Shown: positions 5,348 to 61,876 of the stretch, piece by piece
How positions within the stretch are numbered: position 1 is the stretch's first letter
Layout of the letters: every line of letters starts with the position of its first letter
Source: Phyllobates terribilis
Lineage: Eukaryota
Assembly: GCF_046119375.1 (NCBI RefSeq)
Contig: NW_027362761.1
Location: 424,514,001 to 424,578,000 of the forward strand
DNA length: 64,000 bases
Direction: 5' to 3'
Translations under genes and position numbers: made by a program
The notes under the pieces: model-generated
The model's database searches: none
The model's input: only the letters and a program-made list of their open reading frames with translations
Told to the model about the DNA's origin: nothing

Positions 5348-5366
5348 AATCCTGCCGACTACGCCA
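5348..5366 (-). other. Primer binding site, tRNA-Ser (AGA/TGA type)
   Basis: TGGCGTAGTCGGCAGGATT, 5 nt after the LTR end; complementary to the remembered vertebrate tRNA-Ser 3' end (...AATCCTGCCGACTACG-CCA). Confidence 0.85.
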
Positions 5367-5371
5367 AAAAT

Positions 5372-6370
5372 TGACGCGCCCCTGGGCCTGTGTCGCGCTC
5401 CTGTTGCGCATGCGGGAGCTTACCCGGAGCCGGATCTCTTGAGGGTTGTAGTCTCGTGGCGGTGATCCGGTCCGTGCCCAGGGAGTCAGACTAAGTGGCG
5501 CTGTATTAGCGGTAGATGTTGGACGACTACGCCACCCATTGAGTACAGCTAAGGAGCTGCTGCTGCAGGGCAGACCGCTGAGGCCGGTGGTAGGATTGTG
5601 CAGCGTGATAGTATAACCCCCAACAGGAGGGGTATGGCCTCAGGGCAGCCGACGTGGATGATGGGGGTAGCAGGAACCACTCAGAGACGGTACGGTGTAG
5701 TTCAGGGTCTTTACTGGTGACAACGATAGACCCTCCCGGAGTACTGGCTAGCGATTGGGGCCTGGTCAGTCCTTGAGCAGATGGGATCTCCCCTGGCCAG
5801 GCGGAGTTGTAGGCCTCCCAAACTAACGATACTCTTCTGGCTACCTTGCTAGAAGCGGGTATAAGTAGCCCACGTCCCTGAGTGTACCGTGTGGTGCTCA
5901 CCCGTATGGCCGGTGACTCGGGGCCTTCTAGTAGCTTCCGCTTCACGACGGCGGTGCTGGTCCCACGCGTGTGACCGTGCCTTCGGGTTTCTGGGCCAGA
6001 GGACCTGCAATCCCCTGCCGGTCGGTTTCTGCTGCTGGATAGGAGTTAGTCCCCACAGCCTCGGACTCCAGGTCCGGTGATAACTTCTCAGTCAGGGCGA
6101 GCTCTGCAGCTGCCAGCCCCTGACTCCTTGTAGCACTGCTCCCACAGAGCTCCTGATGTTCTTTCCTATATCTGCTTCTCTTCTCTGTCTCTACTTCTTC
6201 TCTACTCACTAACCCTGCCTCAGCCCTAGGTTTATATAGGGGAAGTTCTTCCCCTCCCAGCACTGGGCAGGAGGTGTGGCATGCACAGGATCCCTGACCA
6301 AGAGACCTCCCACCTGCTCTCAGACATAACATTGCCGTTACTGTGGAAACCAGACCCCTGGGGTGCCACA
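5372..6370 (-). repeat. 5' LTR of Gypsy copy 1 (999 bp, TG...CA)
   Basis: Homologous to the 995-bp LTRs at 17957 and 24856, with small indels including an extra AGAAG. Confidence 0.93.
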
Positions 6371-8276
6371 CATCGACAGGACAAGAGGTGCCAAACTGCC
6401 TCTTAATAAACTTGGCACATTTTACTGCCACATTTATAAAACAAGAGCAAATCTGGAACATTTGTAAAATTACTTATGTCTTAGTAAATTTCCATTCCCT
6501 GTAAAGGTATATTATATGGAGGTCACCATCATCACTCTGACCGTTTTCAAGATTGAAACCACTGATTGATCTGCTGATCACTGAAAATACAGTTTCAGAG
6601 TCATATAGCCTATCGATTATTTGGCTGGAGAAGTCATACAATTTATAGCAGCAACCAAACAAATGGTGGCTATATACTAGATAAATGGGTTGGGTCTATG
6701 AAAGTGATTCTTTTTGGTAGCACTGTCAAATGATTAATGATTAACCACCTGTATACCTTGATAGGACATATGAAAAAATAACTTGTCTTCTTTCTACAGT
6801 CTCTTTGAGGGACAAGTATATTGCAGACATTTTTGCAATTTTCTGTCCAATTTATCAGAATAGATTTTTCAGAAATCCATGCATATGGAGCATAAACAGC
6901 CCCGCTAAGGGAAAAGGAACTGATTTTCAGTTGCAGAAATTTCCACAACAAATCTGAAATGTCCAAATATACCTTAATGCTTCTGGTACTTGCCCATCAA
7001 CAATCATTCTAAATAGTACTGCAGCATGGGCAGGTGGAGATATTGTTGTAAACCGCACACAGTAGTTTCTACCAAGAAGATATTTGAGAGATGAAGATAT
7101 ATATTACACTGCTTATGAAGACTTATTTTTATCGTTTTAATAACTTTCTATACAATCTTTGACGTATGAGAAGTCATAAAACTAATAGAGCAATTTTGTT
7201 ATTAATAATAAAGATATTAGATACAGTCCCAATGTGGACTTTTCTTTCTCTTTAGTTGCTAAATAAGTTGTATATAGTTATGAAAATGTCTGCAAAATAT
7301 AATTTGCTGGTAATTGCCTCTTGTGTGCCCTGGATTATGGAATGGGAATCTCACTCCCATAGCTGTCACTTTTGATGATTAGCTGGGAGCTTTAATTAGG
7401 TGAGATGTTTGGGGGATCAATCACACAGGACGGAGCAGTGATACAGAGTAGGTTTCGCATACATTGGAGTCCACTTTACTGCCCACAGCAATTGTTACTT
7501 ACGTCCTGTGTTTACTTCATTAGGAAAACATTTTCTGCATGTCTGGAATGATCTGCAGACATTTTGCTGAGAGTAAAGTTTAGCCAGTGGCAAACATGGA
7601 CAGTTAGGTATAAAACAGGAAACTGTCTATGCAGATGAAGTATTTTCTGAAAAATAAAATAAAGAAAACCCCAAAAACTGTCCTTGTGTAAAATAAAAAT
7701 GAAGACATGCTGTATATTACTATTCTATTACAGAATTCAATAGTTTCTCCTTACCTATCTTCATGTATAGGTCATGTAGTTTAGAACTAAGCAGAAAACT
7801 TCTCTCTAGCTTATTATAAATATGCATGTTATTCTTGCAGTGGAATTAACATAATAGCACAATTTACAGGTTTTGGTTATTTAATATCTGCTAGCAGAGA
7901 GCTAAAAGGTGTGATGGCGGAGGTGTAGAAATTTAAATTTCTTTGGACTCCATTACATTCTGAGGAAATAATGGCACGAGATAACAGCACTCGTTATTAG
8001 TATGCACAGTGCACACCTTTAACTTGTCAAATCTGTATTCAGGTCATAGCTGAAGTTTTGTAAAACGCTTTGTGCAATTTGTCTTTCAAAATGTATATAG
8101 TTTTGTATAATGCTAGGGAGATCAAGCCACTGAATTCTGTTATTTCCTTATTTCTATTAGTAATTGTGACTGTATTAAGACAAGACTAGGTATTATTAAG
8201 ATTAGGTATCTGTTCCATCACTTCAGTGTGGGAATCTTGAGCCCCAGCTAACACGGCTGTTACTTCATACCTCGTC

Positions 8277-17956: not shown

Positions 17957-18951
17957 TGTGGCACCCCAGGGGTCTGGTTTCCACAGTAACAAGCAATGTT
18001 ATGTCTGAGAGCAGGTGGGAGGTCTCTTGGTCAGGGATCCTGTGCATGCCACACCTCCTGCCCAGTCCTGGGAGGGGAAGAACTTCCCCTATATAAACCT
18101 AGGGCTGAGGCAGGGTTAGTGAGTAGAGAAGAAGTAGAGACAGAGAAGCAGATATAGGAAAAGAACATCAGGAGCTCTGTGGGAGCAGTACTACAAGGAG
18201 TCAGGGGCTGGCAGCTGCAGAGCTCGCCCTGACTGGAAAGTTATCACCGGACCCGGAGTCCGAGGCTGTGGGGACTAACTCCTATCCAGCAGCAGAAACC
18301 GACCGGCAGGGGATTGCAGGTCCTCTGGCCCAGAAACCCGAAGGCACGGTCACACGCGTGGGACCAGCACCGCCGTCGTGGAGCGGAAGCTACTAGAAGG
18401 CCCCGAGTCACCGGCCATACGGGTGAGCACCACACGGTACACTCAGGGACGTGGGCTACTTATACCCGCCTCTAGCAAGGTAGCCGGAAGAGTATCGTTA
18501 GTTTGGGAGGCCTACAACTCCGCCTGGCCAGGGGAGATCCCATCTGCTCAAGGACTGACGAGGCCCCAATCGCTAGCCAGTACTCCGGGAGGGTCTATCT
18601 TTGTCACCAGTAAAGACCCTGAACTACACCGTACCGTCTCCGAGTGGTTCCTGCTACCCCCATCATCCACGTCGGCTGCCCTGAGGCCATACCCCTCCCG
18701 TTGGGGGTTATACTATCACGCTGCACAATCCTACCACTGGCCTCAGCGGTCTGCCCTGCAGCGGCAGCTCCTTAGCTGTACTCAACGGGTGGCGTAGTCG
18801 TCCAACATCTACCGCTAATACAGCGCCACTTAGTCTGACTCCCTGGGCACGGACCGGATCACCGCCACGAGACTACAACCCTCAAGGGATCCGGCTCCGG
18901 GTAAGCTCCCGCGTGCGCAACGCAGCGCGACACAGGCCCAGGGGCGCGTCA
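17957..18951 (+). repeat. 5' LTR (TATATAAA at 18090, AGTAAA candidate polyA signal at 18609)
   Basis: TGTGGCACCCC...GCGCGTCA; five substitutions seen against the 3' LTR. Confidence 0.95.
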
Positions 18952-18956
18952 ACTTT

Positions 18957-18976
18957 TGGCGTAGTCGGCAGGATTC
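18957..18976 (+). other. Primer binding site, tRNA-Ser (AGA/TGA type)
   Basis: TGGCGTAGTCGGCAGGATTC, 5 nt after the LTR. Confidence 0.88.
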
Positions 18977-19401
18977 CGTGCCCGCAACCACCGGGTACTG
19001 CGTGCCTGGAAAAAAAAAAAAAGAGACTTTTAAACTTACCATCGGTGAAGATTCCCGCCATCCGGCGCCATCTTCAGCCTTCTTCCCGCCATCGGTGAAG
19101 ATTCCCGCCATCCGGCGCCATTTTCAGCCTTCTTCCCGCCTTCCGTGGAGTTTTCCCGCCGTTGGACGCCATCTTGAAGACGCCGCGCGGGAAGAAAAGG
19201 GGCGTGGACTCCGAAAGCGCGCGAGAACTGAAGCCCCGCCTCACGTCCGGACGTTGCGTAAGGTCCTGGAAGGAGCCCAGCAGACGCCGACGTCACAGGA
19301 GCGCGACGGAAGGTCCTCAACCCTGACGATCCACTGCGGAGCCGCGGCCTACGGAAGAGGATCATCGCAAGGTAGGCCACGGTCCACTAGGGGGGAGAAG
19401 G

Positions 19402-20382
19402 ATGTCGGATAAGGAGGAGAGCTTCACCGCTTCAACCCCCGCCAGCGCCACCGCTGTTGCGGTCATGCCTTTCACCATGCCCTATATCCCGGGGGCAGCC
19501 TGGCTACCCCAGTACTCAGGGGAGTCACATACCCTGCATGACTTTAGAGAAAAGCTGGATAGCCTCTTCCAGGTGTACCCCCTCACAGAGGAGCAAAAAG
19601 TGAGCATCCTGGTGGCCCAATTAACCGGGGCAGCCCAAAGGGAGGTAAAGTCCTGGCCACCTGGGGGGAGGACTGTCGCAGGGATACTAACCCGGCTGAG
19701 GGACACCTTTGATACCCGCACCTCAGCCGAGATCAAGCTTAGATTCTACGGGTGCAAACAGCGGGCACATGAGAGTATAAGGGACTATGCCCTGAACCTA
19801 CAAGAGGCCCTGAGAGCCATTAAGCAGACCGACCCTGACGGCGTGGGAGACGAGGACAGGCTGTTGACTGAACAATTTATAGAGGGTTTATATTGCAATG
19901 CCCACCGAACCCAGTTGCGGGCAATGGCCTTACAGGACCCTCATCTGGGATTTGCACAGTTCAAGGACAGAGCCATCCGGGTGCTTCGAGAACCGGCACC
20001 AGGTGGCGTTGTGACCCCCAGACGCCCCACTGCCACTTACCACCAGGAGGCGGCGCCCTTGTCGGCAGGGCCTGTGGGGGCTGATGCGCAGGCTTTGAAC
20101 AATGACCCGGCTCCAGACCTGCACCATCAGGTCCAAGAGCTAGCTAAAAGCGTTGCTGCGCTAACCCGAACTGTGCAGTTTTTACAGGTTTCCACTCCAG
20201 GGAAGATCCAGCTGGCATCCGGACCGGAGGACATCCCGTGGAGTCGACCAAGGAGGACCCCACCGGCCAGAGGAAGACCCAGCGACCGATACAACGAGGA
20301 CGGACGACCCATCTGCCGCCGCTGCAATCAACCCGGACATATGGCAAGGTACTGTCCTTTAAACTGGCACAACCTGGGGTAG
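19402..20382 (+). CDS. gag: Gypsy Gag (capsid plus CCHC nucleocapsid), 326 aa
   Basis: Intact ATG-to-TAG ORF; capsid-like KQRAHESIRDYALNLQEAL; zinc knuckle CRRCNQPGHMARYC. Confidence 0.93.
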   Translation: MSDKEESFTASTPASATAVAVMPFTMPYIPGAAWLPQYSGESHTLHDFREKLDSLFQVYPLTEEQKVSILVAQLTGAAQREVKSWPPGGRTVAGILTRLRDTFDTRTSAEIKLRFYGCKQRAHESIRDYALNLQEALRAIKQTDPDGVGDEDRLLTEQFIEGLYCNAHRTQLRAMALQDPHLGFAQFKDRAIRVLREPAPGGVVTPRRPTATYHQEAAPLSAGPVGADAQALNNDPAPDLHHQVQELAKSVAALTRTVQFLQVSTPGKIQLASGPEDIPWSRPRRTPPARGRPSDRYNEDGRPICRRCNQPGHMARYCPLNWHNLG

Positions 20383-23300
20383 AGGGCCAACCCCCAGGAA
20401 AAAGATCACCAGGCCCATCGAACTGGCGCGACAAATATGTGGGAGGACGTCCAGTCTTACCCGTGGTACTGGATGGCATTCCTATGAGTGCCCTACTGGA
20501 CACCGGGTCACAGGTCACCACCATCCCGTACGTGCTCTTCAAGCAGTACTGGAATGACTCGGATATCACCCGCTACCCTGACGACGACTTGAGTATCATC
20601 GCCAGCAATGGTCAGCCCGTGCCACAGATTGGATTTAAAGAGGTGACCATTAAAATCGGTAGAGTCGAACTGGCAGCACAGGGACTGATCATTGTAGACA
20701 TTGACAAACACGAGAGTCACCCAAAGATAACTCTAGGAACTAATGTAATTGAAAATTGTCTTGCAGAGGTGATTTTCCTTTTACAGCAGGTTGCCAAGAA
20801 CGCCAGCTCCGGCCAGCAGCGAGTGCTCCAGAAAGAGATCCGGGCACTGATGCGACGGCAACAGCTAGAACTCTCCGGTGGTGAGATTGGTAGCGTGCGA
20901 ATGTGTGACCCTTTCCCTATTGCCATGCCCCCGAAAAGTGAAATGATGATTTGGTGCCGGGCAGCTATTGGTCTGAGAGGTAGAGATTACCAGGCAATGG
21001 TAGAACCAGTTTACTCAGACAGTAGGCCCACCATTTTGACAGCACGGGGGGTGGTCAATGTACGCCATGGGAGGGTGCCCGTTCGCATAATAAATATCGG
21101 GAAGAGGGAAGTGTACCTGCCCCGGTATGCCACGCTAGCCAAATTGTATACCATCAATCAAGATTCCATACAGTCCGTAGAACCCTTGCCTCCATCTTCC
21201 CCGGAGGAAGGTAACGGCTCTCAGAAAACAATGGAGGACTGGTGTCAGCAACTACATTTGGGTACTGACTCCACTCCCTCACACCAGAAACAGGGAGTCT
21301 ATCGGGTGGTTCAAGAGTACGAGAGAGTGTTTAGTAAACACCCGTTAGACTTCGGGCGAGTCAAGGGGGTAGAACACCACATCCCCACGGGAGACCATCC
21401 TCCCATAAAAGAGAGGTATCGACCCGTACCCCCTGCACACTACCAACACGCCAAGGGGATGCTTAGAGACATGAAGGAGGCTGGGGTGATCAGGGATAGC
21501 TGTAGCCCCTGGGCAGCTCCACTAGTCTTAGTCAAAAAGAAAGACAACACCATGAGGATGTGTGTAGATTACCGGAGAATCAACCGTATCACACACAAGG
21601 ATGCGTACCCCTTACCAAGGATAGAGGAGTCTTTGGCTGCTTTAAGATCTGCTAACTTCTTCTCTACCTTGGATCTCACTAGTGGGTACTGGCAGGTTCC
21701 TGTAGCAGAGGCGGACCGGGAGAAGACCGCATTCACCACCCCGATGGGACTTAGCGAGTTTACCTGCATGCCGTTCGGACTCTGCAACGCACCAGGAACC
21801 TTCCAACGATTAATGGAGTGCTGTCTGGGCCACAGAAACTTCGAGACGGTCCTGCTGTACCTGGACGATGTCATCGTATATTCCAAGACGTATGAGGACC
21901 ACCTGAAACACCTGGCGGAAGTGTTCGAAGCTCTGGCAAGCTACGGCCTAAAGGTGAAACCCTCCAAGTGTCACCTCCTGAAACCAAAGGTGCAGTACCT
22001 GGGACACGTGGTGAGCGCTGATGGAGTGGCTCCCGACCCTGATAAGATCACCGCAATTAAGGAATGGCCAAGTCCCTCCAGTGTAAAGGAAGTGCGGCAG
22101 TTCCTCGGGTTGGTAGGCTATTACCGCAGATTCATCCCCGGTTTCACCAAAAAGGCAGCTCCTATGCAGGACCTCCTGATAGGCCAGTCCCGGAAGGCCA
22201 AGAACCAGAAGCCGCCCTTCAAATGGGAGAAGTTAGAAGAAGAGTCCTTCCGCCAGCTGAAGATGGCCCTCACGGGGGATGAAATCCTGGCGTACCCTGA
22301 TTACAGCCAGCCCTTTATCCTCTACACCGACGCAAGTAACATCGGGCTAGGAGCCGTACTGTCCCAGATCCAGCAGGGGAAAGAACGAGTAATCGCTTAC
22401 GCTAGCCGAAAACTGCGACCCACCGAAAGAAACCCTGAGAATTACAGCTCATTTAAGCTAGAGTTCCTGGCAGTGGTGTGGGCAGTCACCGAACGCTTTA
22501 AGCACTACCTCGCTTCTTCCCGGTTCACCGTGTACACGGATAACAACCCGTTGACACACCTGGACACGGCAAGACTCGGTGCCCTAGAGCAGAGATGGAT
22601 GGCCCGTCTGTCCAACTACGAGTTCACAATCAAATACCGGGCAGGACGCTCCAATACCAACGCGGACGCCCTGTCCAGGATGCCAAACCTACCGGACGAA
22701 GGAGAAGATCCAGAGGGACTGGAAGAAGTCGAACTCCCCGCGTTCCACCGTCGTGGGACTATCCAGTATTCCCATCGGGTAAGGAGTAAGCAAGCCGCTA
22801 CGTTTAACCCCTTGCCTCACTACAACTGGGAGGAAACGCAAGACAGTGACCCTGCCGTCCGGCTGGTGAAGGAGATGCTGACTCGGCCAGAGGCTCGCCT
22901 TGACCCAGACGCTCCGGAGGAAGCCAAGCAACTGTGGGCTGAGAAGAGTCGACTGTTCCTTTACAAGGGGAAGTTGTGCCGCAGAATGGTTAACTCCCGG
23001 ACGCATGAACTAATCTGGCAAGTAGTGGTGCCACGGAGAGACGCAGCCATGGTGATGGAAGCATACCACGACGGGGCTGGACACTTCGGATGGAAGAAGC
23101 TGGAGTTCCTGCTGCGTGGGCGGTTCCACTGGGTAGGCATGAGGGGAACCATCGAGAGGTGGTGCAGAGACTGTGGCCCGTGCAACCTAAGAAGGAAGGA
23201 CCGTGCCAGCCAGAAGACTCCCCTGCAGTCCATCGTCACCCGGCAGCCGTTGGAACTGGTAGCCTTGGATCATGTAAAACTGACCCCAAGCAGAAGTGGC

Positions 23301-24494
23301 TACGTCTACGCGTTAACCATTGTGGATCATTACTCCCGGTTCTTGGTTGTCGTCCCCGTTAAGGACTTAACGGCTCAAACAGCAGCTGGAGCCTTCCAGC
23401 AGCACTTCTGCCGTCCACACGGATACCCGGACCAAGTGCTGACGGACCAGGGACCTGCCTTTGAAGCGGAGATCTTCCAAGAATTCTGCAATCTGTATGG
23501 CTGCCGGAAGATAAGGACGACACCCTATCATCCGCAAACTAATGGACTTTGTGAGAAAATGAACCAGGTGGTAATGGATCTCCTGAAAACGTTGCCCCTG
23601 GAAGAACGCAGTTTGTGGCCTGAGAAGCTGCCCGATCTGGTGGACCTATACAACCACATCCCGGTAGGTTCCACCAACTGTACCCCGGCTTACCTAATGA
23701 GGGCGATACCTGGTAAGTTACCTGTTGACCTGGAAATGGGAGTCCTGACACCCGAGGACACTTCACCGGAAACAGACTGGGACACAGAGAGGCAGCAGCA
23801 GTACCGGAAAGTACAAGAGAGCGTGGAGCGAAGTCTCTGTCTCGCTAGGGAAAGACAAGAGAAAAATTACAACCAGTATGCTCCCGCTGTTCCCCTGGTA
23901 CCCGGAGAGCAGGTCTTGAAGAGGAAGAGACGGCTCCACAAGTTGGACGACCAGTGGGAGAAGGACCCGTACACCGTACTGCCCTCAAGCCACGACAACC
24001 CAAAGGTTTGTACCATCAGTAAAGACGGAGGGGAAACCACAGCCATTGTATCCCGGGATCACCTGAAGAAGTGTCCCGAACAGCTACGGAACCCAGAAGG
24101 AGAGCAAGAAGACCCTCGACCCGTAGAGGAAAGGGAAGATATGGTTAGTACTGTGCTCGGAGACTTCCCTCGATCCTGGACTCAAGTCAATGGTGCAGTT
24201 GTGGTACCCGTCCTCACGTTCCTCCAACCAGCATCCCAAGTGCCTACGGAGCAACAGGTAGAGCTGGAAGAGCAGCCGGTCCAGGAGGCAGCAGACTCCA
24301 CACAAGCAGAACAGGAGGATCAACCCTCTGCTCATAGTGAGCCTGCCATACCCCTAGTGAGCCAAAGAGCCCGTAGACAGCTGCCCAGTTTATCCTTGAT
24401 AGCTCCTACACCCTGTAGTTCAGGGCCAGACAGTCAGCTCCGTAGGTCCACTAGGGCCACTAGAGGCCAGTTACCCGCACGTTGGAGGATTTGA
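20238..24494 (+). CDS. pol: Gypsy Pol (PR-RT-RNaseH-IN), -1 frame to gag; probably entered by frameshift near 20364
   Basis: LLDTGS protease, YLDD at 21858-21869, RNase H LYTDAS/VYTDNNPL, IN zinc-binding H...H...CGPC, DDE core, C-terminal GPY/F-like module; no chromodomain; no internal stop. Confidence 0.95.
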   Translation: MESTKEDPTGQRKTQRPIQRGRTTHLPPLQSTRTYGKVLSFKLAQPGVEGQPPGKRSPGPSNWRDKYVGGRPVLPVVLDGIPMSALLDTGSQVTTIPYVLFKQYWNDSDITRYPDDDLSIIASNGQPVPQIGFKEVTIKIGRVELAAQGLIIVDIDKHESHPKITLGTNVIENCLAEVIFLLQQVAKNASSGQQRVLQKEIRALMRRQQLELSGGEIGSVRMCDPFPIAMPPKSEMMIWCRAAIGLRGRDYQAMVEPVYSDSRPTILTARGVVNVRHGRVPVRIINIGKREVYLPRYATLAKLYTINQDSIQSVEPLPPSSPEEGNGSQKTMEDWCQQLHLGTDSTPSHQKQGVYRVVQEYERVFSKHPLDFGRVKGVEHHIPTGDHPPIKERYRPVPPAHYQHAKGMLRDMKEAGVIRDSCSPWAAPLVLVKKKDNTMRMCVDYRRINRITHKDAYPLPRIEESLAALRSANFFSTLDLTSGYWQVPVAEADREKTAFTTPMGLSEFTCMPFGLCNAPGTFQRLMECCLGHRNFETVLLYLDDVIVYSKTYEDHLKHLAEVFEALASYGLKVKPSKCHLLKPKVQYLGHVVSADGVAPDPDKITAIKEWPSPSSVKEVRQFLGLVGYYRRFIPGFTKKAAPMQDLLIGQSRKAKNQKPPFKWEKLEEESFRQLKMALTGDEILAYPDYSQPFILYTDASNIGLGAVLSQIQQGKERVIAYASRKLRPTERNPENYSSFKLEFLAVVWAVTERFKHYLASSRFTVYTDNNPLTHLDTARLGALEQRWMARLSNYEFTIKYRAGRSNTNADALSRMPNLPDEGEDPEGLEEVELPAFHRRGTIQYSHRVRSKQAATFNPLPHYNWEETQDSDPAVRLVKEMLTRPEARLDPDAPEEAKQLWAEKSRLFLYKGKLCRRMVNSRTHELIWQVVVPRRDAAMVMEAYHDGAGHFGWKKLEFLLRGRFHWVGMRGTIERWCRDCGPCNLRRKDRASQKTPLQSIVTRQPLELVALDHVKLTPSRSGYVYALTIVDHYSRFLVVVPVKDLTAQTAAGAFQQHFCRPHGYPDQVLTDQGPAFEAEIFQEFCNLYGCRKIRTTPYHPQTNGLCEKMNQVVMDLLKTLPLEERSLWPEKLPDLVDLYNHIPVGSTNCTPAYLMRAIPGKLPVDLEMGVLTPEDTSPETDWDTERQQQYRKVQESVERSLCLARERQEKNYNQYAPAVPLVPGEQVLKRKRRLHKLDDQWEKDPYTVLPSSHDNPKVCTISKDGGETTAIVSRDHLKKCPEQLRNPEGEQEDPRPVEEREDMVSTVLGDFPRSWTQVNGAVVVPVLTFLQPASQVPTEQQVELEEQPVQEAADSTQAEQEDQPSAHSEPAIPLVSQRARRQLPSLSLIAPTPCSSGPDSQLRRSTRATRGQLPARWRI
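20358..20416 (+). promoter_or_regulatory. -1 programmed ribosomal frameshift signal (T TTA AAC plus predicted pseudoknot)
   Basis: Slippery heptamer in the correct Gag phase, 8-nt spacer, stem CCTGGGG/CCCCAGG, loop GGGCC able to pair with downstream GGCCC. Confidence 0.75.
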
Positions 24495-24847
24495 AGTGTT
24501 TAAATTGTTTTATTTGTGGTCACCTGTCTGTTACTTGTAAATAATTATGTGTTTCTAGTTATTTTTAGGAGTCCTTGGTGGATTTACCGGGAATCCTTGT
24601 ACAATTGGTTGGAGCGTAACCCAGGAATGGACTAAAAGACTGTTAAGGACTCGGGGCAGGACAGACCCCTACCTGGTTACGTCTCCCTGTTTTGGTGAAA
24701 TGGACACCTTTGTTTTCTTCAAAGACTGCACCCGGTTGCGGACACGCCGTAACCATCTTTATGTGTTTTTCCTATTGTATTATTATTGTTTATACCTTGT
24801 TATGTTTTTCTAAAAATATGTTTAGTCCCGGAGTACTAAATTTCACT

Positions 24848-24855
24848 AGGGGGAA
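24848..24855 (+). other. Polypurine tract
   Basis: AGGGGGAA directly before the 3' LTR TG. Confidence 0.8.
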
Positions 24856-25850
24856 TGTGGCACCCCAGGGGTCTGGTTTCCACAGTAACAAGCAATGTTA
24901 TGTCTGAGAGCAGGTGGGAGGTCTCTTGGTCAGGGATCCTGTGCATGCCACACCTCCTGCCCAGTCCTGGGAGGGGAAGAACTTCCCCTATATAAACCTA
25001 GGGCTGAGGCAGGGTTAGTGAGTAGAGAAGAAGTAGAGACAGAGAAGCAGATATAGGAAAAGAACATCAGGAGCTCTGTGGGAGCAGTACTACAAGGAGT
25101 CAGGGGCTGGCAGCTGCAGAGCTCGCCCTGACTGGAAAGTTATCACCGGACCCGGAGTCCGAGGCTGTGGGGACTAACTCCTATCTAGCAGCAGAAACCG
25201 ACCGGCAGGGGATTGCAGGTCCTCTGGCCCAGAAACCCGAAGGCACGGTCACACGCGTGGGACCAGCACCGCCGTCGTGGAGCGGAAGCTACTAGAAGGC
25301 CCCGAGTCACCGGCCATACGGGTGAGCACCACACGGTACACTCAGGGACGTGGGCTACTTATACCCGGCTCTAGCAAGGTAGCCGGAAGAGTATCGTTAG
25401 TTTGGGAGGCCTACAACTCCGCCTGGCCAGGGGAGATCCCATCTGCTCAAGGACTGACCAGGCCCCAATCGCTAGCCAGTACTCCGGGAGGGTCTATCTT
25501 TGTCACCAGTAAAGACCCTGAACTACACCGTACCGTCTCCGAGTGGTTCCTGCTACCCCCATCATCCACGTCGGCTGCCCTGAGGCCATACCCCTCCCGT
25601 TGGGGGTTATACTATCACGCTGCACAATCCTACCACCGGCCTCAGCGGTCTGCCCTGCAGCGGCAGCTCCTTAGCTGTACTCAACGGGTGGCGTAGTCGT
25701 CCAACATCTACCGCTAATACAGCGCCACTTAGTCTGACTCCCTGGGCACAGACCGGATCACCGCCACGAGACTACAACCCTCAAGGGATCCGGCTCCGGG
25801 TAAGCTCCCGCGTGCGCAACGCAGCGCGACACAGGCCCAGGGGCGCGTCA
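24856..25850 (+). repeat. 3' LTR (995 bp)
   Basis: Direct repeat of 17957-18951, followed by the TATA TSD. Confidence 0.95.
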
Positions 25851-25966: not shown

Positions 25967-27269
25967 ATGGGGAACGAAAATGCCAAGGAAGGCATTATAG
26001 CCAAAGACTTAGTAGTACGCAGAGAAGGGAAACAAAATATTGTGTAAAGCGGGAATGAATGAGAATGGAGAGATGAATGGAGAGATGAATGGAGAGAAAT
26101 GGAAATACTTCTTTAACTCCTATCATGGATGGCTGAAAGATAAGGGTCTGTTAGGGACAGTAGATGTATGGATGAATGCATGCGCTTATTTTGAAGGAAA
26201 GATTGAAGAACTAGGAGACGGACGTTACAGACTGACAAAAACCGGAATGATAGATTTTCCTCCCTGTCCGCTCCCGACGTCACCCCCACCCCAGTATCAG
26301 AATTCCCAGGAACCTAAATGTTGGGTTTGCCCCAGATGTGGACAGCAGAACCCCTTGCCAGTAGACATCTGTGTGGCATGTGGAGGACCGAGACCCCACC
26401 CAGCTAGTCTATTCCCAATGAGGACGGTAGTTGTGCCAGGAGCATCAGCAGCAGCAGGAGGGGGGGATGCAGTGGTTCCAGGTCAGGAAGCTCGTACAAT
26501 GTTAATGTATAGACCATGGAGTCCTTCAGAGCAGTTGGCACTGATCTCCCAGCTGCCAGACCCATCCCAGTCCCCTATGGGTTTCGCTAGAATGATCACC
26601 ACCATACAGGATACGTACCATGCCACTAGAATAGATCTGCAGGGGGTAATTAAGGGAAAATTGGCAGATGAAGCCCGCTATGATAGGTTGATAGATGAGA
26701 CAAAAAAACAGTATGCCAATAGGACCGGACCCGTAGATGCAGAATCTAATGATGCAGCAGCTGGAGTCCTATTCGCAGCAGTGTTGGTAAAAGCATGTCA
26801 AGACAGGCAAGCAGAAAAGAAAGTTACACTAGAAGATAGAGTGCAAGGGAAGGAGGAAGATCCTAAGGATTATTTCTATGCACTAAAGAAAACCTGGTCA
26901 GAAATGGGGTTCAACCCCGGGAATAAGACTAGTGAGAGGGTATTAGCAAGTGCTTTCATGAATGGACTAAAGAAAGAGATTGCAGAGAAGGTAAAAGCAA
27001 GTAGACCGGACTGGAGATCAGTGAAGGCAGAAGATTTAGCTAGAATAGCTCAGGGGGCACAACATGACATAGCGCAGGCAAAAAGAGCTGCCAGAATACA
27101 TATAGTAGAGACGACCCCCAGAAACAACAGAGGCGGAGGACAGACTGAAGGAGGAGGACAGAAACTGTGTTACGGATGTAAAAAGCCAGGACATTTTAGA
27201 AAGAACTGTAGGACCAAATGCTCAGAGTACGGGTCCTCCAGCCGACCAAACAACGCCCCCATAGGATGA
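25967..27269 (+). pseudogene. gag: ERV gag (Met-Gly start, PPxY, RanBP2-type zinc finger, MHR, CCHC) with one frameshift near 26035
   Basis: ATG GGG AAC at 25967 (MGNENAKEG...) stops after 26 codons; removing one A from the CAAAAT run joins it to ORF 26040..27269. QGKEEDPKDYF (MHR); CYGCKKPGHFRKNC. Confidence 0.85.
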
Positions 27270-27270
27270 G

Positions 27271-30200
27271 GGTAGCTTGCACATGAACCCCCTCATCTCC
27301 TTACCCCCAACTCCCAGTTGTATAGTGCAGGTGAACCTACCAGGGGGACATGAAATCGATTTCCAAGTAGATACGGGGGCCGACAATTCAGTAATTACGC
27401 AAGGTGATTGGCCATACACTGACACTGATTTTTCACGTCATGTCATTGCCACCCCCTTCAATTCCCTGTCTGTCCTGCTCCCTGTCACTAAAAGAATTCA
27501 AGGAGCTACTGTACATAGCCAGCTCATGGTATCGCCCCGAGGCCAATGTAATCTATTGGGAAATGATGTGTTGTCCCAATTACAAGCACATATTGAGTAT
27601 CATCCCGATGGCACTGTGACCATGACCCCAGGTTTAAAACCAAGTACCCTTTGCAAAATTATGTCACTAGATATTGCCACCATAGAAGAGACAAATGAGT
27701 TTCCCCTGATATTAGAGCAGGCTGTGCCACATGATTTTTGGGCCTCAGACAAAACAGATGTTGGTAGGTTAAGAGTTCAACCAGTGATGGTGAAATTAAA
27801 ACCAGGAGCAATCTTACCTCAACAGAGGCAGTATCCCCTTAGCTCGGCTCAGGAGAATGCCATAGCCCAGCAAGTCCAAAAATTACTACAGAGAGGAGTC
27901 CTAGTCAAAACCCAGTCCCCTTGCAACACTCCCCTGTTCCCAGTAAAGAAAAAGAGCGTGCCAGGACAACCAGCCGCATATAGAATGGTCCATGACCTCC
28001 GGTTGGTTAACAAAGCCACAGAACTTCTAACACCAGTTGTGCCCAACCCTCATACTCTCCTGTCACAGATACCTTCTAACTCTCTTTGTTTTTCAGTGGT
28101 CGATTTGGCAAATGCATTTTTCAGTGTACCATTACATCCTGACTGCCAGTACTTGTTTGCTTTCACATTCCAGGGCAGTCAATATACATGGACAGTGTTG
28201 CCACAGGGTGCCCAGAATTCACCCACAATGTACACTGCAAGTCTGCAGGAAATACTGGAGGGATGGTCTGAACCACATATCGTTGTTTTGCAATATGTCG
28301 ATGACCTGCTCATTTGTGCCCCCTCCAGGAAACAATGTCATAGTGCAACTATATCACTTATGTTGTTTCTCTATCGCGCTGGCTGCAAGGCATCGAAAGA
28401 TAAGCTTCAGTTTTGTAAATCTTCAGTCACCTTTTTGGGACACTGCATTACACCAGGAGCTCGTCATTTGACAAATGCACGTAAACAAGCAGTACAGGCA
28501 TTCACCGTCCCCATTAATGTTGCAGCCCTCAGAACTTTTCTTGGACTTGTTTCCTATTGCAGACAGTGGATTCATGCCATCTCTGTTTTAATGCAGCCCC
28601 TCTATGACTGTCTTACTCCAACACCTTTTGTACTAACACCAGAGGCACAAGACTGTTTTTATTCTCTCAAAAAACGTATTTTGGCCGCTCCAGCTTTGGG
28701 TACCCCTAATTATGAGCTCCCATTTACTCTGTACCTTCATGAACAAGCTGGACATGCAGCAGGAATTTTAACTCAAACACACGGTGATAATAAGAGACCT
28801 GTTGCCTACTTTAGTGGCAGATTAGATGCGGTAGCCAGAGGTGCACCATCCTGCGTACGTGCTCTGCATGCTGTTGGACTATTACTCCATAAATCCGCAG
28901 ACATTGTTCTAGATCATCCGCTCACCGTGCTAACACCTCATGATGTCTATACTATATTGAATCAAGTGCAACCCGCTCACCTCTCAGCAGCACGTCATCT
29001 TAGGTTACAATGTGCACTGTTAATGCCTCCCAATGTTTCTTTACAGAGGTGTACTACCCTGAATCCAGCAACTTTGTTACCTCTCTCGGATCTAAAGGAG
29101 GGGTCAGGTACTGTGCTTTATAAGGAAGATCCAAGAGAGGAAGTTCCTCATGACTGTGTACAAATGATGGCACAAGAAACGGCAGGTTTACCTACTGTAT
29201 TTGAACATGAATTACAAAATGCAGATTTTGAATTTTTTGTAGATGGATCCCGTCATCAGGACGATTCAGGTACCTTCCATACTGGATATGCAGTTGTCTC
29301 CCTCAATGCAGTAATCAAGGCAGAACCAATGCTCCCACACCAATCGGCTCAAGAAGCTGAACTTAGGGCCCTAACCGAGGCCTGTAAACTAGCGGAAGGT
29401 AGTATTGTTAACATTTACACAGATTCTAGGTACGCATTCGGTATATCGCATGATTTTGGTCCCATATGGAAGTCAAGAGGTTTCCTGACGGCAGCAGGAC
29501 ACCCCATTAAGAATTCTGATGCGGTCCAGCAGTTAATTGATGCGCTACAACTACCCAAACAAGTAGCTGTCATAAAGGTAAGAGCACATACCAGACGCAC
29601 CGACCAGGTAAGCAGAGGTAACGCGATGGCAGATGCAGCGGCAAAAACAGCAGCCTGTAAGCCGCAACAAGGGTCAACAGTACGTCAGTTAAGTGCCCCT
29701 AAAAACCCCTTTGTGTCGGAGGACATCTTATCCCAAATGCAGGCTCAGGCTCAAAAGGAGGAGGTTGATAAGTGGTTACAGGAAGGTGCATGCCTGAATG
29801 AAGCAAATGGGGTATGGGGGAAAGGGACACGATGATGCCTTCCAAGGGCACTGTACCCAGCAGCTGCCCAGATACTACATGGGCCGACACACCAATCTAA
29901 AACGGGTGTGATGAGTGTGATGCAGAAACATTGGGTGGCACCAGGATTCTCCACCTGTATTGAAAACCTGGTACAAGGGTGCATGACATGTGCTACACAT
30001 AATCAGGGTAGAGTAGTTAAAACACCACCCAAACACACCCCCCGGCCCCTCTATCCATTCCAGAGACTGCAAATTGATTATATTCAGCTGCCAAAGTCAG
30101 GATCATGGGAATATGTGTTGGTCTGTATTGATTTGTTCTCAGGATGGCCAGAGGCTTTCCCGATTGCCAAAGCCATGGCTGCGGCAACCGCAAAGAAACT

Positions 30201-30742
30201 GCTTGCGGAGGTGGTCTGCAGGTATGGGGTACCAGAGGTAATTGAGAGTGACAGAGGTACACACTTCACAGGTGAAATAATGAATGAAGTCATGTCAGCT
30301 CTAGGAATTCAACAAGCATTCCACACCCCATATCACCCACAAAGTAGTGGTAAACTGGAAAGACTGAATGGGACATTGAAATTAAAAATTCAGAAAGCCA
30401 TGGCTGAGACAGGAAAACCATGGCCGGACTGTTTACCACTTGCTCTGTTTTCAGTAAGATACACGCCCAATAGAAAGACTGGACTCTCCCCATATGAGAT
30501 ATTGTTTGGCAACGTACCCAGCCTAGGGTGTTTCTATCCGCAAGCATTAGAAATGAACAACCATGTGCTAAGTTCCTACGTGAGGGCTTTACACAAAAAG
30601 ATTAAGCAAGTACATGATAATGTCTTCAGTTCTCTTCCAGATCCAGATCAAGACTCTAGCAGCCATACGCTGCAACCTGGAGACTGGGTGGTTATAAAAA
30701 GACACGTGAGGAAAAGCCTAGATCCACGGTTTGACGGACCCT
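27271..30742 (+). pseudogene. pol: ERV pro-pol (PR, RT, RNaseH, IN) with an in-frame TGA at 29833-29835, truncated in the IN C-terminus
   Basis: VDTGAD and NLLGND protease; LPQGAQNSP and YVDD (28294-28305); FFVDGS/IYTDSRY RNase H; HGPTH...CMTC; QIDY...SDRG...ERLNG. ORFs 27277..29835 and 29908..30972 share one frame. Confidence 0.9.
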
Positions 30743-51165: not shown

Positions 51166-52469
51166 TGTAGCGCCCCGAGGACTCGGTCGCTACAGAGGTA
51201 TTACACCTCATCCAGAGGTGTGATATCCCACTCCCGGGTAAGGATGGGGTATGGATCAAGGCTCAGTAGGCTGCATACAGCACACACACCCCATTTCCGA
51301 GGGACAGCTCAACGGTGCTCCCACTAGACAGAAGTGCAGGCACGACAGCATCTGTCCCTGGCTGGAGTGGGGAGGGGGGTGGAATACCCAGTGCTGTAGG
51401 GGCAGATAGGGGTTGGTTCCTGAGCATAGGAAGGAGCCCATTGGTTGCTAGTCACCTGGGCTCATGGTCAGAGGGAGGTATAAAAGGTGGGCACCATCTT
51501 AGCTCTGGGGGAAAGAAGAAGAAGTTCAGTGTGTGAGGAGAAGTGGAGAAGGCAGGGAGCAGGGCTGCTGCATGGGCTCTGCTCCCTGGGCAGGCATAGC
51601 ACAGAGGCCGGGGCCAGAGAGAGAGAGAGAGAGGAGAAGGAACAGTGGAAAGGAAAAGGGAACAAGACCAGAACAGAAGTAACAAGTGAAACAGAAAGGC
51701 TCAGGAACGAGAAGGAAGAGAGAACCCTAAGGACCCAGGAGATTGCGGGTGACGGGTTGGCAGAACAGGGTACCGGATCCCAAACTGGTGGAAGCAAATC
51801 ATCTTCAGCCAAGAACCGGAGGTCGTGACCAGCCCTTGGTGCGACCCCTCGCTACACCTTGCTAGGAAGGCATACCATAGCGGGTCAGGTACGTGGGCAT
51901 GTAGCCCCCCCTAAGAGAAGGCCCGCGGGAGCTGGACATAAGCTTGGTCACTGGTGGGGCACGAGCCAGAGAAAGGACGGAAAGGAGCTTTGAGACATAC
52001 TCCAGAAAGACCTGGGAGGTGACCGAGTCCCTTGCCTGGTGGACGCAGCACGGCTTGGGTGGTCACTGCTTCGCGAGAGTGACCTGGAGAATACAAACTG
52101 TGAGTAAAGGACATTGGATTGCAACACATTGTCTGTGACTTCTTGCTCCTCCAGCACTATTGGTATTGGGGCTATCTGCGCTATCACCCCCACCATCCAC
52201 GACACTGCCCTGGGGCTGTACTCTTCCCGTGGGGAGTCACACTACCTAAGCTGCATACACCATCTGCCCCAGCGGTCTGCCTTGCAGCGGCGGTCCGCAC
52301 TGACCGCATTCCACGGGTGGCGTAGTCGGACTATTATCTCACTAATAAGACTGCCACTGAATTGACCACCCTGGGCATGGACCGGGTCAGCGCCACGGAA
52401 ACTACAACCCTCAGCGATCCGGCTCCGGGTATTCCCCGCACGCACAACACAGGCCCAGGTGGCGCGTCA
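51166..52469 (+). repeat. Family B 5' LTR (TATAAAA at 51479, AGTAAA at 52103)
   Basis: Direct repeat with 53975-54675 outside a 603-bp block. Confidence 0.9.
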
Positions 52470-52473
52470 ACTT

Positions 52474-52498
52474 CGGCGTAGTCGGCAGGATTCAAACC
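52474..52498 (+). other. Primer binding site, tRNA-Ser (AGA/TGA type)
   Basis: CGGCGTAGTCGGCAGGATTCAAACC, 23 of 25 matches to the remembered tRNA-Ser complement TGGCGTAGTCGGCAGGATTCGAACC. Confidence 0.82.
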
Positions 52499-52902
52499 AA
52501 CCCGTCACCAGCAGGTATTGCGTGCCTGAAAAAGACTTTTGTACTTACCTGTGGTGAAGTTTCCCGTCGTCTGGAGTCGCTTCCCGCCATCGGACGCCAT
52601 CTTGGGTCGTTTCCCGCCATCTTCTGCCGTCTTCCCGCCATCGGACGCCATCTTCGGGACGCCGCACGGGAAGAAGAGGGGCGTGGACGCCGAAAGCGCG
52701 CGAGATCCGAAGCTCCGCCCCACGCACTGATGCTGCGTAAGGTCCTGGAAGGGAGAGGGAGCGACGCTGACGTCACAGGAGCGCGACGCAAGGTCCTCAA
52801 CCCCGACGATCGACTGCGGAGCCGCGGCCTACGGAGGAAGATCATCGCAAGGTAGGCCACGGTCCACCGGGGGGGAGGAAGACATCGGGAACGGAGAGCA
52901 AG

Positions 52903-53409
52903 ATGGCGGACCGGCAGCAGACTAAGCTGCCCAGCATCGGCAGTGCCCCAGTCGTCGCCGGCCCCGACCAGCGCCAGGAGAAGACGCGTGACGCAGGAGT
53001 GGTCGCGAGAGCAGGTAAGAGGAGTCTCCCTGTCCCGGACGCTGCCAGCGTCAGCCTGCTCCCGGGCCCCCTGGTGGAGCCGCCGATCCCGGGCGCTGCA
53101 GACACCGATCTGCTTCAGACCCCGCAACAAGGCCTGCAGCCGACCCCTCCAGCCCTGGGCACCGCCACCACCAGCCCGCGCCCAGGCCCAAAGTCGCACC
53201 CTCTGACCCCGGGTGTCATCAACAGCGGCCTTCTCCAGACCCCGCCGCAAGGCCTACTGCACAAGGGTGCCAAGGGACAGTACGCCCTCCACGTTCACCG
53301 GCTCACGGAGGAGAAGCTGCAGTACCACCAGTACGATGAAAGCCAAGAGGACCCGGACGTGTCTGAAGACTACCCTCAGGAGGGAGCTCAAGGAGGACAT
53401 AGCTATTAA
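52903..53409 (+). CDS. Orphan 168-aa ORF inside the non-autonomous element (coding status unproven)
   Basis: ATG in AAGATGG context, about 20 nt after the position of the family A gag start; Pro/Gln-rich with a repeated LLQTPxQGL; no recognised domain. Confidence 0.3.
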   Translation: MADRQQTKLPSIGSAPVVAGPDQRQEKTRDAGVVARAGKRSLPVPDAASVSLLPGPLVEPPIPGAADTDLLQTPQQGLQPTPPALGTATTSPRPGPKSHPLTPGVINSGLLQTPPQGLLHKGAKGQYALHVHRLTEEKLQYHQYDESQEDPDVSEDYPQEGAQGGHSY

Positions 53410-53974
53410 AAGAAAGTAGCGTGAGTAAGGAACTGTACAAAGTTACCCGTCAGGGTACAAGGACTGTTTTCCTTTTGAACTGTTAATAAGTGTGGGCCCC
53501 TTTGGGACAGCTAAAAGACTGTTACCCGTTTCCAAGATACCCCCTTCCTTACCTGGCTGAGGACTGAGAACAGCCATCCCCTTCCCTACCTGGCCGAGGA
53601 CTGGGAGCGGCCATCCTGTAAATAGTTGCGCTTCTTAAAGCGCCCCCTACTGGTTTTATAATGAAACTGCACCTCTACCTCAAGCACCTTTGAGACCAGT
53701 GAATACCTGGTTGCCAGTTGCACAGCGGCCAGAAGTCAAGAATGTATTTTTGAAGAATGTTTTACTTGCAAAAGTTTTATAATGTGTCTTATGGTAAAAG
53801 AGTTCCGGAAGTAATAACCAAAAGTGTTTCATCAAAGTGTTTCCCATGAAGGGAATTGTACAAGTGTGTCTGTTTCCTGATGTAAGCAGTTATTGAAAAA
53901 GTTTTTGCATACCCATTTGAATCGTTTTTGCTCTGTTCCAGCCCGAGGACGTGCTGTGCTTTACCAGGGGGGAA

Positions 53975-54675
53975 TGTAGCGCCCCGAGGACTCGGTCGCT
54001 ACAGAGGTATTACATCTCATCCAGAGGTGTGATATCCCACTCCCGGGTAAGGATGGGGTATGGATCAAGGCTCAGTAGGCTGCATACAGCACACACACCC
54101 CATTTCCGAGGGACAGCTCAACGGTGCTCCCACTAGACAGAAGTGCAGGCACGACAGCATCTGTCCCTGGCTGGAGTGGGGAGGGGGGTGGAATACCCAG
54201 TGCTGTAGGGGCAGATAGGGGTTGGTTCCTGAGCATAGGAAGGAGCCCATTGGTTGCTAGTCACCTGGGCTCATGGTCAGAGGGAGGTATAAAAGGTGGG
54301 CACCATCTTAGCTCTGGGGGAAAGAAGAAGAACGTTGTCTGTGACTTCTTGCTCCTCCGGCACTATTGGTATTGGGGCTATCTGCACTATCACCCCCACC
54401 ATCCACGACACTGCCCTGGGGCTGTACTCTTCCCGTGGGGAGTCACACTACCTAAGCTGCATACACCATCTGCCCCAGCGGTCTGCCTTGCAGCGGCGGT
54501 CCGCACTGACCGCATTCCACAGGTGGCGTAGTCGGACTATTATCTCACTAATAAGACTGCCACTGAATTGACCACCCTGGGCACGGACCGGGTCAGCGCC
54601 ACGGAAATTACAACCCTCAGCGATCCGGCTCCGGGTATTCCCCGCACGCACAACACAGGCCCAGGGGGCGCGTCA
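53975..54675 (+). repeat. Family B 3' LTR lacking 603 bp
   Basis: Identical offset to the 5' LTR for 358 nt, then jumps to the equivalent of 52127. Confidence 0.9.
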
Positions 54676-55099: not shown

Positions 55100-56142
55100 T
55101 GTGGCACCCCAGGGGTATGGTTGCCACAGTAATAGGAATATTACGTCTGAGAGCAAGTGGGAGGTTTATCTGGTCAGGAGCCCTTAAACAAGCAACACCT
55201 TCCTGCCCAGACCTGGGAGGGGAGGAATCTGCCCTTATAAACTGGGTCTGGGGCGGGATTAGACAGTCAGAGTCAGAGCCTGGAGAGGGAAAGTTACAGC
55301 AGGAGCTCTGTAGGAGCTAGGAGCAGAAGACCTGGGGCTGGAAGCTAAGCAGAGATATAGCTCGCCCTGGCAGAAGAATCTGATAACCGGACACCGGAGT
55401 CCGAGGCTGTGGGGACTGATATCCACCCAGCAGCAGAAACCAGCCGGCAGGGGATTCCAGGTCCTCTGGCCATAGAAGCCCGGAGGCTCAGTCACAAGGA
55501 AGGGACCAGCACCGCCATCCAGGAACGGAGGCTAACAGAAGGCCCCAAGTCACCAGCCATACGGGTGAGCACCACACGGTATACTCAGGGACCTGGGCTA
55601 CTTCTACCCACTTACAGCAAGGTAGCCAGAAAGAGTGCAGATAGACGGGGAGGCCTACAACTCCACCTGGCCAGGGGAACTCCTGTTTGCTCGCAGACTG
55701 ACCAGGCCCCTTATGCTAGCCAGTACTCCCGGGAGGGTCTGCCTTGATATCACCAGTAAAGACCCTGAACTGCACTGCAAAGACTCTGAGTCGTTCCTGC
55801 TCATCGCCGCACCAGCACTACTAGTGCTGGGACGCCCGCGCACCATCACTCCCATCATCCACATTCCCTGCCCTGAGGCCATACTCCTCCCGTGGGGAGT
55901 TATCCCATCCTTTGCTGCGCACACCACACCAGCCTCAGCGGACTGCCTCGCAGTGGCGGTACACCCTGACCGCAATCCACGGGTGGCGTAGTCGGACAAT
56001 TAACCTAAAACCCCTAAAAGACCGCCATTGGCCTGACCACCCTGAGCCATGGGACCGGGTCGCCGCCACGGAGACTACAACCCCCAGAGACCCGGCTCCG
56101 GGTATCCCACACACGCCCACACTAGGCCCAGGGGGCGAGTCA
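55100..56142 (+). mobile_element. Solo LTR, Gypsy family C (diverged relative of family A)
   Basis: TGTGGCACCCCAGGGG...GGCCCAGGGGGCGAGTCA, TAAA TSD on both sides; shares blocks with the family A LTR (CACCACACGGTA, AGTAAAGACCCTGAACT). Confidence 0.9.
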
Positions 56143-60489: not shown

Positions 60490-61876
60490 TGTGGCGCCCC
60501 TGCGGGTCCAGTCGCCACAGAGGTACTGCATCTCAGCCAGAGGTGTGGTACCCTACTCTCGGGAGGGAGCACTACCCGGGACCCACACACCCACATCCAA
60601 CACCACATCACTCCAGTAGGGAAGGGCGAGATTGCTCCTGAGGGAGAGCACAGTCCCTGTCCCTGTCTGGAGGAGGGAACTAGGGGTAGAGGAGGTGGGT
60701 GGAGGAAGTAGTTTAGGTGAGCACACAAGGAAGGACTGAAGGTAGAGGGGACCACGTAGAGTGACAGTTAGTGACGTGGGTGACATGGCAGACAGTATAA
60801 AAAGACAGGTAGAAACATCTAGAAGGGCCCAGTGAGTGAGGACCGTTGAGGAGTAGGGTCCAGACAGAGTGAGGACCCAGTCAGAGGAGTCCAGTAGAAG
60901 AGAGAACGAGAGGAGCGAGGGAGTTAGAGAAGGGCTCCAGAGACAGAGAAGTGATCTTAGGGGCACGGGAAGTGCGGAGTCCACCCGTGCGCCCGAATTC
61001 ACACCGACCGTAGTCGGGAGAAGGGATCAGGTCGCAGTAGGGGACCGGCCCCAGACTAGTGGAGGACTGCAAGTCTCAACTAGCAAAGCGGAGGCTGCGG
61101 TATCTCTGTTCCGTAGCCAAAACCGCACACATTCGCTGAAAAGGTGGCCATATAGGACCAAAGGGACCGTTGAGGAGTAGGGTCCAGACAGAGTGAGGGC
61201 CCAGTCAAAGAGGCCCAGTAGGAGAGAGAACGAGAGGAGCGAGGGAGTCAGAGAAGGGCTCCAGAGACAGAGAGGCGATCTTAGGGGCATGGGAAGTGAG
61301 GAGTCCACCCGTCGCCTGACAAGGCCCGCGGCCACTGGCTCGGGACACTGTTTGTGAGGCACAGGGCAGGAGGGCGAGAGCCAGCTCAGAGAGAGACGAC
61401 TCGGGAAAGGTACACAAGAAGGAGGTCCCGATCAAGTGCACCCAAGTTATCTGAGAATTGGCTGGATCACTTTCCCGGAGGACACAGGACTCAGTAGGCT
61501 GTTATAACCTGCTGGTAGTTGTAACTTGGAACATCATAAGAACTGTGAGTAAAAACTTGAAGACTGCACCCCGCTGTGTCCTTGACTTAATTGCTGCGTC
61601 ACCTGCCTTGCACTACACCAACAACAAAGCTACCTCTTTAACTGCCTTGGGGCCTAGCTCTACCCGTGGAGAGCTGAACCATCTCTGCTGCGTCACCAAT
61701 GGCCCCAGTGGATCTGAACTGCAGCGGCGGGTGGCGTCACAAAACTTTATCCCCAAAACTTTATACCCTCTGTTATTGACCACCCGGGGCCACGGACCGG
61801 GTCACGCCACCGTGACTATCCTAAAAGAACCGACCGGCTCTGCGCCAAGTACTCCACGGCCCCAGGGGGCGCGTCA
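60490..61876 (+). mobile_element. Solo LTR, Gypsy family D (1387 bp) with an internal direct duplication of about 147 bp
   Basis: TGTGGCGCCCC...GGCCCAGGGGGCGCGTCA, TTTA TSD on both sides; 60841-60990 is repeated at 61166-61312. Confidence 0.88.

Follow-up and report, generated by a model that had tools for sequence, protein, structure and literature searches.

In the window, the whole 64,000-nt stretch of Phyllobates terribilis DNA analysed here, the LTRs of four related Ty3/gypsy families (A, B, C and D) carry two short sequences that are complementary to the two acceptor strands of a tRNA-Ser. Site M repeats, in A, B and C, the sequence with which the primer-binding site (PBS) starts, and site S, further downstream, matches the tRNA's 5′ end. 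Both complementarities are conserved, and both change together in family D. Judging from these sequence relations, we put at about even the chance that the two sites together make up an auxiliary tRNA-Ser-binding cassette within U5, which would be kept by selection and would follow the isodecoder of each family. The cassette is seen only in the four frog families, and the arrangement is undescribed in the literature searched, a full-text search with most subscription papers and Repbase outside its coverage. The features on which the argument draws are the following.

17957-25850 (+): element A2, a full-length Ty3/gypsy element with a 4-nt target-site duplication (TSD), TATA
17957..18951 (+): 5′ LTR of A2, TG...CA, 995 nt, 99.5% identical to the A2 3′ LTR
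18090..18097 (+): TATA-like box of A2; there is one per family, the others at 51479 (B), 55236 (C) and 60796 (D), all (+)
18609..18614 (+): AGTAAA, putative poly(A) signal of A2, which sets the placement of U5; there is one per family, the others at 52103 (B), 55755 (C) and 61548 (D), all (+)
18790..18800 (+): M in the A2 5′ LTR, complement of the 3′ 11 nt of tRNA-Ser including CCA, equal to the PBS start
18823..18830 (+): X, a short block in A, B and C, able in folding models to pair with either M or the PBS
18836..18951 (+): long predicted U5 hairpin of A2, closed by the LTR-terminal GTCA, with S in the apical loop
18864..18876 (+): S in the A2 5′ LTR, complement of tRNA-Ser nt 1-11 with a 2-nt purine bulge
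18957..18976 (+): true PBS of A2, 20-nt complement of the tRNA-Ser 3′ end
19327..20382 (+): gag frame of A2 with a CCHC knuckle; the match to PNMA is weak and under the curated cut-off
20148..24494 (+): pol frame of A2, in the order RT-RNaseH-integrase
24856..25850 (+): 3′ LTR of A2, full length, with M at 25689-25699 and S at 25763-25775
5372..6370 (-): 5′ LTR of a second family-A copy, with M at 5524-5534 and S at 5448-5460, followed by the PBS at 5348-5366
51166..54675 (+): short element of family B, TSD ATGG, PBS at 52474
51166-52469 and 53975-54675 (+): LTRs of the family B element, the second one shortened by an internal deletion; M at 52318 and 54524, S at 52392 and 54598 (3-nt bulge)
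55100..56142 (+): solo LTR of family C, TSD TAAA; M at 55984, S at 56065 (3-nt bulge, offset 81)
60490..61876 (+): solo LTR of family D, TSD TTTA; M at 61732..61740, S at 61806..61816

Element A2 has the hallmarks of a Ty3/gypsy retrotransposon, with TG...CA LTRs, a TSD, a PBS and a purine tract, a pol of the order given above and a CCHC gag; a gene model of Phyllobates terribilis shows 98% identity to its pol. The gag frame matches PNMA with an E value of 6e-4, below the cut-off, and the RT groups with fish elements carrying PF14893 in a tree that included no named Barthez reference, which bears on any placement in the Barthez (PNMA-related) lineage. PNMA has been linked to Barthez elements in the account given in PMC3670739. 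The family D solo LTR represents a fourth family that had been overlooked in the earlier, sequence-only reading of this DNA. Over the last 320 nt of the LTR, A, B and C are 65-78% identical to one another and D is 57-63% identical to them, and a profile built from the four U5 ends matched the seven known LTRs and nothing else in the window. In family B, the 3′ LTR (53975-54675) is missing about 600 nt including AGTAAA and retains the TATA box, M and S; the interior (52470-53974) is just 1.5 kb long, has only its first 430 nt in common with family A, and the short element looks non-autonomous. The family D LTR contains a 149-nt internal duplication (60840-60988 and 61164-61312, 93%).

For A, B and C, the sequence-only reading had reported a motif identical to the PBS start some 150 nt ahead of the LTR end, and this was confirmed: TGGCGTAGTCG is exact in 6/6 LTRs of these families (one copy in each LTR listed above) and lies 152-162 nt from the LTR end. 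The same sequence begins the PBS at 18957 and at 5356-5366 (-), and the family B PBS at 52474 has it with one mismatch. This PBS starts with CGG instead of TGG; both M sites of family B keep TGG. A 16-nt block containing M is the longest invariant run in an alignment with one LTR per family (A, B and C), with a column-permutation P of ~0.001 that overstates the significance, because U5 has conserved stems and the null is therefore too generous. The second-longest conserved run, a 13-nt hairpin arm at 18891, is almost as well conserved as the M block. The 11-mer has a probability of 2e-4 of turning up in a shuffled U5 of 320 nt. The further claim that the motif is identical in every LTR of the clade does not hold, since the solo LTR of D reads TGGCGTCAC at 61732, where only the first 7 nt of M agree with A, B and C; the core GTGGCGT is invariant in 4/4 families. 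M lies downstream of the AGTAAA of each family and hence probably in U5, so that this part of the earlier placement stands. The other part, a position near the RNA 5′ end, has to be given up: M is 700-940 nt downstream of the TATA box and would thus be in the 5′ copy of U5 but far from the RNA 5′ terminus.

The A2 PBS (18957-18976) is the exact 20-nt complement of a human tRNA-Ser as printed in PMC3299991 and PMC7449687. At S, families A, B and C read GCCACG followed by 2-3 purines and ACTAC (ATTAC in one B copy); minus the bulge, this equals the last 11 nt of antisense tRNA-Ser, i.e. the complement of tRNA nt 1-11. The bulged pattern occurs six times in the window, every time at the S position, and its shuffle frequency in A is 1.3e-3 for a motif chosen post hoc. 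From M start to S start the offset is 74 nt in A, B and D and 81 nt in C. In all four families, S is the best site of the whole LTR for the 5′ 11-mer of the cognate tRNA and M is the best site for its 3′ strand. None of seven short motifs complementary to the T, V, anticodon or D arms was found in A2, B, C or D.

For S of family D, tRNA-Ser(CGA) was the isodecoder suspected in advance. This site, GCCACCGTGAC at 61806..61816 (+), is complementary over all of its 11 nt to the 5′ end published for mouse tRNA-Ser(CGA)-2, which is the start of tRF5-20-SerCGA-2 as given in PMC11551137; the sequence of this fragment is also tabulated as a tRF-5 in PMC7330628. M of family D is a 9-nt complement of the tRNA-Ser(CGA)-2 3′ strand, as deduced by pairing from the published mouse 5′ end, with a mismatch at position 10. 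The shuffle frequency of S in D is 5e-5, again for a motif chosen post hoc, and with GCCAC shared among the families, the six free positions give 1/4096 per candidate tRNA by simple arithmetic. Moreover, the duplex energies form a diagonal matrix in which the cognate tRNA pairs more stably than the non-cognate one in 8/8 site-by-family comparisons, for example at S of A, B and C (-15.4 to -16.3 vs -10.3 to -13.5 kcal/mol), at S of D (-23.0 vs -13.0 kcal/mol) and at M of D (-17.2 vs -9.0 kcal/mol). The joint change of M and S would amount to a single switch event, seen in a solo LTR without a PBS of its own in the window. A protein-level search for the translated LTR and PBS in relatives returned no matches for the family-A frame and none among 25 candidates for the family-D frame, and a PBS-derived peptide was absent from 120/120 pol homologues.

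Folding with ViennaRNA predicted, in 4/4 families, a similar long U5 hairpin that is closed by the terminal GTCA of the LTR and has S at its tip. S would be exposed there, and the base of the hairpin would adjoin the PBS. Opening S in A, B and C costs 1.5-1.8 kcal/mol against medians of 5.4-8.0, whereas S of D falls in a local hairpin with an opening cost of 6.7 against a median of 6.3, and only its first 6 nt are open. As a cassette, the two sites could work as follows. Annealing of the 3′ 18 nt of the primer to the PBS would open the acceptor stem, and S could then capture the freed 5′ strand of the tRNA (nt 1-11), so that the initiation complex would be stabilised or positioned. M might catch the tRNA 3′ end first and pass it to the stronger PBS by strand exchange; such a hand-over would be favoured because the PBS:tRNA duplex reaches -41 kcal/mol and the M:tRNA duplex -20 to -25 kcal/mol. 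Alternatively, without tRNA, M might occupy S and X and leave the PBS free. Under either option M would not normally be used for productive priming. The cassette would act like a multipartite primer site, but the defining T-, D- or anticodon-arm pattern is absent, and it is not a full second PBS.

The proposal of a two-site tRNA system in the sequence-only reading has gained from the finding of S and from the match of both sites to another tRNA-Ser in D; as regards M, an intramolecular role is a live rival. According to this competing explanation, which we consider unlikely on balance, M and S are purely intramolecular: the M arm would pair with X, S or other parts of U5, for instance drawing X off the PBS, and the likeness to tRNA would be a legacy or a by-product of pairing with PBS-like sequence. 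M and S are indeed complementary to each other because the strands of the tRNA acceptor stem are, and in A, B and C the M:S duplex (-13.9 to -16.5 kcal/mol) has roughly the stability of tRNA:S, with M:X at -12.5 to -15.1 kcal/mol. In the folding models M finds a partner nearby in every family. The block X can take either M or the PBS as its partner in A and B; in C its partner is M. The X:PBS pairing in A has a probability of ~0.85. No equivalent of X was found in D. Furthermore, each change in S of D can be read as an extension of the local hairpin or of the M:S helix. However, the predicted partner of M shifts with the family and with the length of sequence folded, and M of A, B and C pairs with S of D as well as with its own S. 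The order of the halves of S is colinear with the tRNA 5′ end and not with M or the PBS, and pairing within the RNA gives no reason to expect the exact 11/11 match of S in D to an actual tRNA-Ser end. Two other arrangements were set aside: a pseudoknot with both M and S fully paired is sterically unlikely, by reasoning only, and self-priming of the Tf1 type does not fit since M is identical, not complementary, to the PBS.

We judge it very unlikely that M and S are functionless fossils of an old PBS or of a whole-tRNA cDNA taken in at an extension of the LTR, with their conservation due to chance or to exchange between families. That PBS capture happens is indicated by tandem end-plus-PBS units in a relative, locus L012, which looks, however, like a collapsed assembly. 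The M-S offset of 74 nt, which equals the offset in an 85-nt antisense tRNA-Ser, would also fit a fossil, as would a CA found 4-5 nt upstream of M in A, B and C, the spacing of the real LTR ends of A and B. On the other hand, M is the best-conserved block although U5 has diverged between families, the interval of about 60 nt between M and S shows no similarity to tRNA, and the tRNA switch in D would be unexpected unless D had captured a copy of its own.

A role of M as an alternative priming site, giving short LTRs or regulating yield, is in our view highly improbable. M pairs fully with the CCA end of the tRNA over 11-12 nt at the energies given above, the title of one paper reports dual initiation from two PBSs in engineered HIV vectors, and the CA upstream of M in A, B and C means that priming there need not lack an att-like end; the earlier claim that it would yield non-integrable DNA is thus unsupported as stated. 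But of the seven LTRs in the window, a small sample, none stops at M, and the 3′ ends of both complete elements are full-length, so that there is no sign of productive priming at this site. The complement to the tRNA 3′ end at M falls short of 18 nt: families A, B and C have 11-12 nt of it, and family D has 9 nt. In addition, a CA is missing within 5 nt of M in D, and S would be left unexplained. M has what we take to be a resemblance to CACCC/KLF-like or CRE-like sequences. A DNA-level protein site, or a target of tRNA fragments or PBS-binding repressors, is the least probable reading of all: the core of M is invariant and 3′ tRNA fragments target the PBS, as described in PMC12853362 and PMC7472051, but neither S nor the joint change in D would be explained, and a second silencing target should be lost, not retained.

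As for the origin of the proposed cassette, a more far-reaching scenario, which we hold to be rather improbable as a whole, is that an ancestor captured a complete reverse-transcribed tRNA-Ser primer into U5 by read-through past m1A58. Its middle would have been overwritten by structure, and its ends would have been kept as a clamp that pries the acceptor strands apart, loads the primer before the PBS and is re-tuned when the isodecoder changes. Plus-strand synthesis is described in PMC13191261 as copying the unmodified tRNA to its 5′ end, so that capture of a whole-primer copy would be possible. The offset match to antisense tRNA-Ser was counted by eye and noticed post hoc, and it counts once because the four families share ancestry. 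Both ends are in exact register, as in a tRNA gene, in 3/4 families and the middle is unrecognisable; ARAGORN, Rfam and seven short-motif searches revealed no tRNA similarity in the ~60 nt between M and S. A tRNA gene or tRNA-derived SINE was rejected, as there was no cloverleaf or covariance-model match; no tRNA gene was found in the window, and Rfam gave no tRNA at the two regions scanned. An alternative route, by analogy with L012, would be duplication of the PBS combined with extension of the LTR.

The comparison with relatives covered 64 loci (L001-L064), of which 24 have a readable LTR and PBS; several of these are copies of one family and none is in the RT clade of the frog element. M was present in 0/24 of these distant Gypsy elements, including two with the same PBS, and no match to the PBS start exceeded 6 nt; a clade-wide feature at depth was therefore rejected. 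No consistent S was found in 27 elements, the profile of the four U5 ends gave nothing significant in the 64 loci, and there was no tRNA-Ser in the 60 of 64 loci scanned. Nine loci fall inside the frog RT clade and comprise three distinct elements with a readable PBS region (L012, L029 and L038). L029 and L038 each have a single PBS and no upstream PBS-like match over 5 nt. L012 groups with the frog element with a support of 1.0 and carries six tandem end-plus-PBS units 3′ of its 5′ LTR, with one unit recurring where the 3′ LTR ends; its two LTRs share only 81% identity, and the contig may reflect a collapse in assembly. In the units (L012:704-885 and 6809-6848), an ACA end is followed by two bases and then by a PBS-like sequence that differs among the six, and the units are possibly a multi-primer array, a type of tandem array that is undescribed in the literature searched. 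L012 resembles the frog elements in its RT clade and in PBS-like units that follow a CA, including one at the end of the 3′ LTR. It differs from M and S in that its six PBS units are near-full, lie close together and vary in sequence, and no S-like site was found. L031, with one PBS-like unit after the LTR and then apparent coding sequence, was set aside as a probable tandem element. Gypsy retrotransposons of eukaryotes turn up in many bacterial and archaeal bins of the genome collection, in some cases as complete copies with their LTRs, a sign that host DNA contaminates these bins.

Primer selection and unfolding in LTR elements are known chiefly from yeast Ty elements and retroviruses. In HIV-1, a sequence in U3-R similar to the tRNA-Lys3 gene is said, in work attributed to Piekna-Przybylska in 2010, to aid reverse transcription. 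Both this sequence and the frog sites are complementary to the primer inside an LTR, and the frog sites may share its tRNA-gene-like character; the HIV-1 sequence lies in U3-R and acts at minus-strand transfer, whereas the proposed frog cassette is in U5, is recognisable at its two ends only and apparently follows the isodecoder. Additional tRNA contacts outside the PBS are described as established for Ty1, Ty3, HIV, RSV and Drosophila gypsy (PMC5371799, PMC3592414, PMC13191261, PMC1635307). As in Ty1 and Ty3, where segments of the element RNA beyond the PBS are complementary to the primer, such segments are present here by sequence. The Ty elements are presented in PMC5371799 and PMC3592414 as having a short PBS (10 nt in Ty1) and extra boxes that pair with the T and D regions; by comparison, the frog elements have a full PBS of 18-20 nt, and what their extra sites match is nt 1-11 together with the tRNA 3′ end. 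The U5 of ASLV, which contacts the T arm (PMC13191261), is likewise complementary to a part of the primer freed by PBS annealing. The retroviral U5 contacts outlined in that source involve the T arm or the anticodon and include no PBS duplicate, unlike the acceptor 5′ strand and the duplicated PBS start matched in the frog. Drosophila gypsy, with two sites for tRNA-Lys2 (PMC1635307), offers a parallel as a Ty3/gypsy element with a second, 11-nt, GC-rich, non-priming site, which in the frog is predicted. By the description in PMC1635307, its second site lies close to the 3′ end of the RNA, has the anticodon and T stems as pairing partners, and binds tRNA while being dispensable for cDNA synthesis. 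In the frog families, both extra sites instead lie within U5, upstream of the PBS, and correspond to the two acceptor strands, one of them duplicating the PBS.

If the cassette reading is true, a U5 cassette that tracks isodecoders would offer a natural series for the study of primer choice and switching, and it could show how LTRs grow through uptake of primer-derived sequence. Changes to the HIV PBS revert or weaken the virus, according to a review. Moreover, solo LTRs of this group would keep a record of the primer and carry a target for tRNA fragments; in the account of PMC12853362, such a target is normally missing from solo LTRs.

Several other features were observed in the window. Directly 3′ of the A2 3′ LTR, 26016-30972 contains stop-interrupted, retrovirus-like gag, protease-RT-RNaseH and integrase frames, with an integrase C-terminus matching the MLV type; no LTR pair for these frames was found in the window. 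MITE-like inverted-repeat elements are present at 60303-60429, 38281-38657, 41730-42093, 45471-45982 and 42973-43932, and the first of these has sub-threshold matches to miRNA precursors in Rfam. The leader 3′ of each PBS contains a cluster of three copies of CGCCATNTT (19066, 19116 and 19167; 52595, 52615 and 52646; 5165-5267 on the minus strand), which we assume to resemble YY1 sites. Finally, the first 30 nt of each LTR (17957-17986, 51166-51195, 55100-55129 and 60490-60520) look by eye as if they could fold into a hairpin whose stem varies between families in a compensatory way: A and C have TGTGGCA/TGCCACA, B has TGTAGCG/CGCTACA and D has TGTGGCG/CGCCACA.
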